Of a stretch of 64,000 nucleotides of DNA, positions 41,101-44,100 are shown piece by piece. The stretch lies in IMG/VR virus record IMGVR_UViG_2563366825_000011, positions 9,000 to 72,999 of that record, one strand, 5' to 3'. Each line of letters starts with the position of its first letter. Within the stretch, counting starts at the first letter, position 1. Made by a program: the position numbers. This DNA is from a virus. Its lineage: Duplodnaviria; Heunggongvirae; Uroviricota; Caudoviricetes.

Positions 41101-44100
41101 TACAATAAAGAGAAGAGCTCAGTACATTAGATAAACATTTTTTATCATTATCTCATTGCCTTTATTCAAAAAAATAGTTACATAACGTTACTAGGTAAAA
41201 TGCAAACCCTCGCTATTTTTATCAGATTGTATGCCGGTAACTATAACAAAAATCAGAACTGGAGAAGATGTTTTGTCAGCAGCCATTCACCGCATTGAAT
41301 GGTTGTTTGAAACATTCTCTTCTGTATGTTTATCTTTTTCTGGCGGTAAAGATTCCACTGTACTTTTCCATCTTGTAGCCGAAGTGGCCTACAGGAAGAA
41401 ACGTCGTTTTTCTGTATTGTTCATTGACTGGGAAGCCCAGTATCAATGCACCATTGATCATATACAGAAGATGCGGATGATGTACCAAGATGTAACAGAT
41501 ACCTTTTACTGGGTTGCACTTCCCCTGACGACAGTAAATGGTGTCTCGCAGTTTCAGCCTGAGTGGATATGCTGGGAGCCCGGTGTAGAGTGGGTTCGAC
41601 AGCCACCGGAAGATGCTATTACTGATATGGCGTATTTCCCCTTTTACCGCTACGCCATGACTTTTGAAGAATTTGTCCCAGCTTTTTCTTCCTGGTTCGC
41701 AAGTAACCAATGTAGCGTGGCAATACTGACTGGAGTCCGCGCGGATGAATCTCTTAACAGATTTATGGGACTGGTTTCCCAACGAAAACTGAGATATGCA
41801 GATGATAAACCCTGGACCACGGCGTCACCTGAAGGTTTTTACTACACCATGTATCCGCTGTATGACTGGAAAACCAACGATATCTGGGTATATAACGCTA
41901 AAACCTGTGCAATCTACAATCCTCTGTATGATTTGATGTACCGTGCAGGCATTCCTCTACGTAATATGCGTGTCTGTGAGCCTTTTGGCCCGGAACAGCG
42001 TAAGGGACTATGGCTTTATCATGTTCTGGAGCCAGAAACTTGGGCACGGATGTGTGAACGAGTATCTGGTGCTGCCAGTGGGGCTCTTTATGCCAATGAA
42101 AGCGGGGCCTATTTTGCCCTGCGTAAACGGATGTCAAAACCATCCCATCATACCTGGCGCAGCTATGCGTTCTTCCTGCTGGACGTAATGCCGGAAAGAA
42201 CGGCTGAACACTACCGCAACAAGATAGCAGTTTACCTGCGCTGGTATCAGAACCGGGGATTCCCGGATGATATCCCGGATGAACAGGAAAATGATCTGGG
42301 CTGCCGGGATGTTCCCTCCTGGCGACGTATTTGTAAGACTCTCATAAAGAATGATTTCTGGTGCCGAACGCTCTCCTTCAGCCCCAACAAACCCCGGCAC
42401 TATGAACGTTACCTGCAGCGTATGAATGAAAGGAGGAAGGAATGGGGAATTCTGTGACACCAGAGGTGGAGGTGCTGAGCAAGATGATTCGACAGTACTT
42501 CAGTCAGGAACAATCTGAAGAGAAAACCATACAGGCCCTGAACCATCTCCGCTGCGTACTCCATGAGATCAGCCCCTTTGCTCAAGAACCAGTGGACTGT
42601 GTGCTGTGGGTAAAAGCGGATGAAATTGTCGCTAACGATTATAATCCCAATGTCATGGCCCCAAGCGAAAAAAAATTACTGAAACAATCTCTGGAAAAAG
42701 ACGGTTTTACTCAACCAATTGTTGTTTCGGAAGAAACAAGCCATTACCTGGTGGTGGATGGTTTTCATAGGCAGTTACTAGGTAGAAGAACAGTTACTGG
42801 AAAACGCCTGAAAGGCTGGCTACCAGTAACCTGTATTAATCCAGACCGAAAGGGACAAACCTCACGTATTGCCGCGACTATCCGACATAACAGAGCCAGG
42901 GGGAAACACCAGATAACCTCAATGTCTGATATTGTCAGAGATCTTTCACGTCTTGGCTGGACTGATGAACGTATCGGAACAGAACTGGGGATGGACCAGG
43001 ATGAAGTTCTGAGGTTAAAGCAGATTAGCGGGCTAACGGAGTTATTTCAGCAGGCAGATTTCAGCCCTGCATGGACTGTTACATAAAGTTAGGTTAGGCC
43101 TGTGGAGCCGGAGCCTGTACATAGATTTGTGTAATTGCCTGATTTTGATATGTTCAATCCAGCATCAAATGAAGGTTAATTTATGGACGAAAAACAGTTA
43201 CAGGCTCTGGCTAACGAACTGGCCAAAAACCTCAAAACCCCTGAAGACCTCAGTCAGTTTGATCGGCTGCTGAAAAAGCTCAGCGTTGAAGCCGCTCTCA
43301 ATGCAGAGATGACACACCATCTTGGGTATGAGAAAAATCAGTCCAGACCAGGAGCTAACTCCCGCAACGGTTTTTCCACAAAGACCGTTATCACAGGCGA
43401 CGGTCCACTGGAACTGCGTACTCCGCGCGATCGTGACGGTACCTTCGAACCACAACTGGTAAAGAAAAATCAGACCCGTATTACCGGGATGGATAACCAG
43501 ATCCTCTCGTTGTATGCCAAAGGGATGACCACCCGTGAGATAGCTGCTGCGTTCAAAGAACTGTATGACGCAGATGTTTCACCGGCACTGATATCAAAGG
43601 TTACCGATGCCGTGATGGAGCAGGTTGTAGAATGGCAAAACCGACCACTGGATGCTGTTTACCCCATTGTTTATCTTGACTGTATCGTCCTGAAAGTTCG
43701 GCAGGACAGTCGCGTCATCAACAAATCGGTGTTCCTGGCACTGGGCATCAATATCGAAGGTCAGAAAGAACTGCTGGGTATGTGGCTGGCCGAAAATGAA
43801 GGGGCGAAGTTCTGGCTCAATGTGCTGACTGAACTGAAAAACCGCGGTCTGAACGATATCCTCATCGCCTGTGTGGATGGCCTGAAAGGCTTCCCGGATG
43901 CCATCAACACAGTATATCCGAAGGCCCGCATCCAGTTATGCATCGTGCATATGGTGCGCAACAGCCTGCGCTTCGTGTCATGGAAGGACTACAAAGCCGT
44001 CACTCGCGACCTGAAAGCGATTTATCAGGCTCCCACGGAAGAGGCAGGCCAGCAGGCACTGGAAGCGTTCGCTGCGGCCTGGGACTGTCGCTATCCTCAG

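Follow-up and report, generated by a model that had tools for sequence, protein, structure and literature searches.

The genes ibrA and ibrB were reportedly described in Escherichia coli by Sandt, Hopper and Hill in J Bacteriol in 2002, and both are said to be needed to activate the expression of eib. Eib proteins bind immunoglobulins and help in serum resistance. The IbrA and IbrB proteins deposited as Q8KU24 and Q8KU23 presumably came from E. coli ECOR-9, and the IbrAB island of 2002 reportedly carried antirepressor homologues and homology to Stx phage, with a boundary near 35.8 min. Here, we analyzed this gene pair in a stretch of 64,000 nucleotides (the window) from a virus of the Caudoviricetes, positions 9,000 to 72,999 of the IMG/VR record IMGVR_UViG_2563366825_000011.

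Several described systems resemble the pair. In the DndB-DndC systems of DNA phosphorothioation, a protein of the ParB/Srx superfamily is encoded together with a phosphoadenosine phosphosulfate (PAPS) reductase-like PP-loop enzyme that acts on DNA (PMC12839542); IbrB and IbrA form a similar pairing. In 7-deazaguanine modification of DNA, the ParB-like ATPase DpdB helps the base-modifying enzyme DpdA (PMC12839542), and the same logic is proposed here for IbrB and IbrA; however, DpdA is homologous to tRNA-guanine transglycosylases and has no PP-loop, and no queuosine-pathway genes lie at ibrAB. In E. coli K-12, the y-gene paralogues YbdN and YbdM (b0602 and b0601) have the same architectures, gene order and overlap as IbrA and IbrB, to which they are 57% and 61% identical, respectively. 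The ybdNM genes lie in the core chromosome, flanked by citR (ybdO) and ybdL, and are not on a mobile element. From the comparisons below, the ibrAB products are probably an ATP-using enzyme guided to DNA, not a sulfur-metabolism enzyme, and we assign a probability of roughly 0.45 to the reading that they would form an adenylylating module directed to DNA, from whose action eib activation would follow indirectly.

The preliminary description of this DNA had proposed two overlapping plus-strand genes, encoding proteins of 408 and 214 amino acids with the motifs SGGKDS and DGFHR, and had recognized them as ibrA and ibrB. Both open reading frames (ORFs) were found, each with an ATG start (Table 1), and the motifs lie within SFSGGKDST (residues 35-43 of IbrA) and VVDGFHRQ (residues 104-111 of IbrB). 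The two proteins are residue for residue the UniRef entries IbrA (Q8KU24_ECOLX) and IbrB (Q8KU23_ECOLX), both by exact sequence match. The DNA of the isolated phage PhiR5_2 (PV340546) is 99.9% identical, and its record carries the label "co-activator of prophage gene expression IbrA/IbrB." Many E. coli chromosomes also contain the ibrAB DNA at 100% identity, and in them RefSeq labels the products "phosphoadenosine phosphosulfate reductase" (ibrA) and "IbrB-like domain-containing protein" (ibrB). The window pair was identified from these matches as the ibrA-ibrB operon of the IbrAB island, with the type sequences, still within a complete prophage. Compared with the ECOR-9 pair, the protein sequences and the gene overlap are the same and the genes no different, and the setting matches as well, with antirepressor genes and Stx-phage-like genes next to ynfF; the window pair adds a 1316-bp IS256-family element and a full-length prophage setting. 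The pair is already known, common and well annotated, and the window holds no new entity: of 5426 complete E. coli genomes, 1863, or about a third, carried ibrAB (at least 80% of the query present). Antisense ORFs within ibrA and ibrB (e.g., 41330..41782 on the minus strand) were without support and were rejected as spurious.

The two genes are tightly joined. A strong Shine-Dalgarno sequence for ibrB lies within the 3' end of ibrA, and this internal ribosome-binding site together with the 16-nucleotide overlap points to translational coupling. Among enterobacterial loci, ibrB directly followed ibrA in 81 of 81, with the same overlap offset in about 30, and the divergence of IbrA co-varied with that of IbrB (r = 0.93). 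In the neighbor analysis, 27 of 80 enterobacterial loci showed the chromosomal citR(ybdO)-ybdN-ybdM-ybdL context.

The linkage extended far beyond enterobacteria. IbrA relatives numbered 1811 among cluster representatives, 1109 of them at E <= 1e-10, and for viruses we used a set of 80 IMG/VR loci with IbrA at 33-54% identity. In 70 of these 80 loci, ibrA had a co-oriented IbrB-like gene at a distance of about 1 kb or less; this gene preceded ibrA in 42 loci and followed it in 25. The neighbors encoded ERF, NinB, NinG, single-stranded DNA-binding protein, primase-helicase and SNF2 helicase. The pair was also found in replication and recombination modules of cultured Streptococcus, Lactobacillus, Microcystis, Mycobacterium, Flavobacterium and Faecalibacterium phages, with the order helicase-IbrA-IbrB in phage PY1 and primase ... 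IbrB-X-IbrA-YqaJ-RecT in Microcystis phage Mwe-JY13, where X is a third component considered below. Since the linkage is conserved while the gene order varies, there is strong evidence that ibrA and ibrB are a functional unit. In some viral loci that have no IbrB-like gene, an ORF of 460-560 amino acids overlaps the ibrA start, and in nine other viral loci, a gene for an SNF2-family helicase lay directly upstream of ibrA and overlapped its start, which suggests that a helicase may accompany or replace the ParB-like partner of IbrA. Examples are L107, L129 and L143, with an ORF directly upstream of ibrA, and L157, L160, L161 and others.

We then considered what kind of enzyme IbrA could be. The protein matched the Pfam families DUF3440 (5e-33) and PAPS_reduct (1.5e-16) and phrog_2302 of PHROGs (6e-86). 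In the family alignment, the PP-loop residues S37, G38, G39, K40, D41 and S42 were invariant or at least 92% conserved, and D66, E68, W121, S174, D217 and Y233 were invariant or nearly so at 28-52% identity. An AlphaFold2 model of IbrA, with a predicted local distance difference test (pLDDT) score of 76, matched CysH/adenosine phosphosulfate reductase, flavin mononucleotide (FMN) adenylyltransferase, CysD, TtuA and TilS with a Foldseek probability of 1.0. When the IbrA profile was compared with solved structures, the best matches were CysD (5.6e-10) and the FMN-adenylyltransferase (PAPS) domain of flavin adenine dinucleotide (FAD) synthase (2e-9), followed by CysH (4e-6). Because CysD and the FAD-synthase domain came ahead of CysH, we read IbrA as a putative adenylyltransferase or, more broadly, as a predicted PP-loop ATP pyrophosphatase. 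CysD and the eukaryote-type FMN adenylyltransferase are the nearest solved relatives with an intact PP-loop, and, with ATP as the donor, they place adenosine monophosphate (AMP) on an oxygen of sulfate or phosphate. However, they are about 15-17% identical to the N-terminal domain of IbrA and have neither DUF3440 nor a ParB-like partner, and IbrA scored 34 bits against the cut-off of 195 bits for the curated NCBIfam model of CysD. No close solved structure was found by sequence for IbrA or IbrB, and the long IbrA homologues showed no informative domain fusions, only PAPS_reduct and DUF3440 with unannotated extensions.

The names in current use, in databases and in virome studies, point to a different enzyme. 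RefSeq and PHROG call such proteins "phosphoadenosine phosphosulfate reductase" or "auxiliary metabolic gene," and IbrA would accordingly be a phage CysH that serves sulfur assimilation by reducing PAPS to sulfite. The IbrA fold does resemble CysH, and one preprint placed the DUF3440 clade inside the CysH phylogeny. However, IbrA scored 31.2 bits against a cut-off of 254.2 for TIGR02057 and 32.9 against 154 for PRK02090. CysH is without an intact ATP-type PP-loop, unlike IbrA, and its C-terminal catalytic cysteine sits in an ECGLH-type motif. This motif is absent from IbrA, in which PAPS_reduct extends to about residue 238 and DUF3440 follows. Nor does the genetic setting agree, as ibrA is obligatorily linked to replication genes and to the gene of a ParB-like partner and has no cys genes nearby. 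We regard the CysH reading as very improbable and effectively excluded, and for the DUF3440 clade, the label of PAPS reductase or auxiliary metabolic gene is probably wrong, judging from these profile scores and motifs.

The partner protein, IbrB, was assigned to phrog_2159 of PHROGs (5e-91) and matched Pfam ParB_N weakly (1.6e-3; 18.9 bits against a gathering score of 26.3). Its family profile reached the solved ParB structure 4umk (6e-6), Noc (1.7e-4) and SbnI (6e-3), and by these profile matches IbrB belongs to the ParB/Srx superfamily at the fold level. Among 47 homologues, 33 columns were invariant. The family motifs are ANDYNPN, DGxTQPxV, VVDGFHR, TIRHNRARGxH (TIRHNRARGKH in IbrB) and GMDxDEVLRLxQxxG, the last of which marks a helix-turn-helix. 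DGFHR aligns with the AGERR motif of 4umk, and the GERRxR motif that binds cytidine triphosphate (CTP) is replaced. Beyond its own family, the best phage relatives of IbrB were ParB-domain DNA methyltransferases (phrog_498, 8e-9, residues 56-189). In these fusions, a DNA-targeting module is joined to a DNA-modifying enzyme, as is proposed for IbrB and IbrA, but in phrog_498 a single polypeptide contains both the ParB-like domain and a methyltransferase, whereas IbrA is a separate PP-loop enzyme.

Some sources name IbrB a "ParB/RepB/Spo0J family partition protein," by which it would be a plasmid or prophage partition ParB whose pairing with IbrA is incidental. The absence of a parA gene from the locus, the score under the ParB_N gathering threshold, the missing GERRxR motif, the integrated state of the prophage and the strict linkage to ibrA all stand against this name, and the partition reading, the least probable of those considered, is likewise effectively excluded.

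The main rival to the adenylylating module is a regulatory role. VirB of Shigella is a ParB-family CTP-switch regulator that raises the expression of horizontally acquired surface and virulence genes. IbrB could similarly be a VirB-like activator or anti-silencer of the ParB family that is loaded onto DNA by a nucleotide switch and relieves H-NS silencing of AT-rich prophage genes such as eib, with IbrA making, consuming or attaching the ligand. This reading would account for the reported phenotype, the activation of eib that needs both genes, and IbrB does have a ParB N-terminal-like domain and a helix-turn-helix. Moreover, its ParB/Srx-fold relative SbnI is named a bifunctional transcriptional regulator/O-phospho-L-serine synthase. 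Against it, IbrB carries DGFHR in place of the GERRxR CTP motif of VirB/ParB-type regulators, and, in a further difference from them, has an enzyme partner. Phages of unrelated hosts all share the same helix-turn-helix, GMDxDEVLRLxQxxG, which is unexpected for operator-specific recognition, so a sequence-specific regulator is disfavored.

The eib side of the question could be followed within the window. As the preliminary description had noted, an eib-type gene lies some 20 kb away (19.7 kb from ibrAB by our measure); over the C-terminal 40-54% of its product, identity to EibC/D/E is 58-61%. Since phage PhiR5_2 carries both loci, ibrAB and the Eib-like gene belong to one element. The DNA ahead of ibrA and that ahead of the Eib-like gene have a GC content of 32-34%, typical of silenced foreign DNA and in keeping with an anti-silencer. 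However, the ibrA leader and the 148 nucleotides upstream of the Eib-like gene that lie within the window shared no motif at k >= 9, and the number of words shared between them at k = 8 was under the shuffled expectation. The pair also occurs in replication modules of phages without eib genes. We consider the anti-silencer explanation fairly unlikely as a whole. An Eib-like gene does share this prophage with ibrAB, as the preliminary description stated, but activating eib cannot be what the pair does in general, because phages of Firmicutes, Bacteroidetes, cyanobacteria and actinobacteria carry the pair without eib genes.

The likeness to DndB-DndC raises the possibility of a minimal Dnd-like thiolation system, in which a DndC-like IbrA would use sulfur from the host IscS to place a phosphorothioate or a thio-base in DNA and IbrB would act like DndB, for self-marking, defense or counter-defense. 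The domain pairing is the same, with DndB of the ParB superfamily and DndC PAPS-reductase-like (PMC12839542), and TtuA-type Fe-S thiolases were among the fold matches of IbrA. The matches to DndC and BrxP models were weak: IbrA scored 17.8 bits against a cut-off of 290.4 for DndC (TIGR03183), 20.6 bits for the PADLOC model of DndC and 28 bits for BrxP, over residues 17-96 only, and PADLOC did not recognize the pair as a defense system. The idea that IbrA might belong to the DndC or PAPS-reductase families did not survive this profile check, since the curated models for both scored far under their cut-offs. Among the cysteines that might hold a [4Fe-4S] cluster, conservation of Cys249, Cys368 and Cys378 was limited to closer relatives. 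At position 96, 86% of family representatives have Cys but E. coli IbrA has Ala, and the family as a whole shares no conserved cysteine. In addition, neither the window nor any of the 80 enterobacterial and 80 viral loci contained dndA/D/E, sspABC or brx/pglZ genes. IbrAB differs from DndB-DndC, and from SspD and BrxP, in having no DndA/D/E partners, scores far under the cut-offs and no candidate Fe-S cysteines common to the whole family, and we regard the thiolation reading as improbable.

A third component, X, was found in many of the viral loci. This segment of about 125-142 amino acids occurs in 47 of the 80 loci; it is fused to the IbrB C-terminus in 27, giving proteins of about 380 amino acids, and encoded by a separate gene directly upstream of ibrA in 20. 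The family conserves W-E close to the N-terminus and, after it, W..S.EH.L(T/S)N...NR.AW.GQA; its cysteines are not invariant. X matched no Pfam or PHROG family. It was missing from the window (six frames), from the 80 enterobacterial loci and from E. coli IbrAB and YbdNM, and profile-profile comparison did not reveal it inside E. coli IbrA or IbrB. The correlation of X with Cys96 of IbrA was weak (Cys in 39 of 45 loci with X and in 19 of 32 without). It is possible, though we put it forward tentatively and hold it to be doubtful, that IbrAB is a reduced, two-gene enterobacterial form of a widespread IbrB-X-IbrA phage system that installs or processes a DNA modification, has its effect on eib as a secondary consequence and is now mislabeled as CysH.

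The adenylylating module that we favor would work as follows. IbrA would transfer AMP from ATP and thereby activate an oxygen of its substrate. IbrB, with its ParB/Srx fold, helix-turn-helix and probable binding of a nucleoside triphosphate (NTP), would be the obligate partner that brings IbrA to nucleic acid, most likely double-stranded DNA. The general role in phages would be DNA modification or processing during replication, and the rise in Eib would come about because the DNA of silenced, AT-rich promoters in the prophage is altered or occupied. What IbrA acts on, which chemistry follows adenylylation and how eib is connected are all inferred. The nucleic-acid modification or nucleotide-transfer activity proposed in the preliminary description fits this scheme, and its statement that the biochemistry of the pairing is not established still holds, with annotation transfers as the only literature and no close solved structure. 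Searches on IbrA/IbrB, DUF3440, ybdN/ybdM and PAPS reductase with ParB returned annotation mentions only and no mechanistic study. Nothing relevant came up in the literature for the PhiR5/PhiR12 phages. A PANGU preprint lists NAP + PAPS-reductase (+ParBc) clusters, to which no link from IbrAB could be made.

Several observations weigh against such a module. The single experimental phenotype, the reported activation of eib, would be explained more directly by a regulator. For IbrB, an AlphaFold2 prediction with 31 close homologues had a mean pLDDT of 46, too low to be of use, and NTP binding is argued from motifs alone. In about 10% of the viral loci, IbrA occurs without an IbrB-like gene. The ibrAB genes of the window lie outside a replication module, at the prophage end among antirepressor and Panacea genes. 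Finally, the LysR regulator CitR represses ybdNM in K-12 (PMC9068703), and a chromosomal copy controlled by a LysR repressor is not what one would expect of genes that modify phage DNA. In the same study, deletion of citR (ybdO) raised ybdN by 5.5 log2-fold, and flagellar and cys-regulon genes were also strongly up, possibly as a strain artifact (PMC9068703, Table 1).

A prophage interrupts ynfG, and ibrAB lies at its left end. After ynfE and ynfF come a truncated 4Fe-4S gene (ynfG), two AntA-type antirepressor genes, the first truncated and the second full-length, ibrA and ibrB, and, past ibrB, a Panacea-domain gene, a gene for an LPD38 polyvalent protein of 2794 amino acids, Lom, tail-fiber genes and the YadA-anchor gene. 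A hairpin with a T-run directly after the full-length antirepressor gene (inverted repeat I3) looks like the terminator of that gene, and because of this terminator-like hairpin, ibrAB presumably has its own putative promoter in the leader that follows. A consensus scan found no strong sigma-70 site in the leader, and no significant repeat or palindrome family was present there. Table 1 lists the features of the window together with examples of X.

Table 1. Positions of ibrAB, of the accompanying features of the window and of examples of segment X
Feature	Position	Strand	Evidence
ibrA: predicted PP-loop ATP-pyrophosphatase-type enzyme; PAPS_reduct ~17-238, DUF3440 ~240-408	41231..42457	+	ORF, Pfam, UniRef, AlphaFold2/Foldseek
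ibrB: ParB/Srx-superfamily protein; helices 1-45, ParB/Srx-like ~50-155, helix-turn-helix ~160-197	42442..43086	+	ORF, UniRef, PHROG, family profile
Overlap of ibrA stop and ibrB start, 16 nucleotides (ATGGGGAATTCTGTGA)	42442..42457	+	sequence
Shine-Dalgarno sequence for ibrB (AAGGAGGAAGGA)	42429-42441		
ibrA intergenic leader, AT-rich, 34% GC	41035..41230	+	sequence
Hairpin + T-run, terminator-like (I3)	41039-41062		
Tandem AntA/AntB antirepressor genes: truncated (94 amino acids) 39871..40155; full, with P22 AR C-terminal domain, 40405..41034	39871-41034	+	Pfam AntA
sRNA-Xcc1 match	39742-39830	+	Rfam RF02221, 69 bits
sRNA-Xcc1 match	40279-40364	+	Rfam RF02221, 73 bits
IS256/Mutator-family element, 1316 bp, 402-amino-acid transposase	43110..44425	+	
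Second, identical 1316-bp IS256-family copy	15376..16691	-	
Panacea (SocA-like antitoxin) domain gene	44498-45022	-	
Gene for 2794-amino-acid polyvalent protein	45173-53557	-	RefSeq "LPD38 domain-containing"
Eib-family-like trimeric autotransporter gene	62758..63852	-	YadA_anchor 4.6e-16; EibC/D/E similarity
First prophage	~1-29060		
Integrase of first prophage	27765..29060		
Second prophage	39340-64000		
X examples (viral loci L082-L161 and L164)	L108:5552-5974, L128:970-2115, L164:5567-5992		

The window contains two prophages, one on either side of the chromosomal segment rspBA-ynfABCD-speG-ynfEF. The first is lambdoid and ends with an integrase gene adjoining rspB; the second, inserted in ynfG, is the phage with ibrAB and the Eib-like gene. 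Upstream of ibrAB, the two sRNA-Xcc1 matches exceed the Rfam gathering score of 53 bits and each lies about 40 nucleotides upstream of an AntA-type antirepressor ORF; from this placement, they look like a conserved leader of the ant genes. Downstream, the IS256-family element begins 23 nucleotides past the ibrB stop. It leaves ibrAB intact and is missing from otherwise identical E. coli genomes. The Panacea gene is directly downstream of the gene for the 2794-amino-acid protein, on the same strand, and because no separate toxin ORF was evident beside it, the antitoxin-like product may neutralize a domain of that protein.

The window provides a clean and intact example of ibrAB, and an inducible phage relative, PhiR5_2, exists, although the biochemistry of the pair is no more tractable from the window than from K-12 ybdNM or from PhiR5_2. 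The mechanism of IbrAB bears on how prophages control virulence-associated surface proteins, and a mislabeled DUF3440 clade would affect claims on viral sulfur metabolism.

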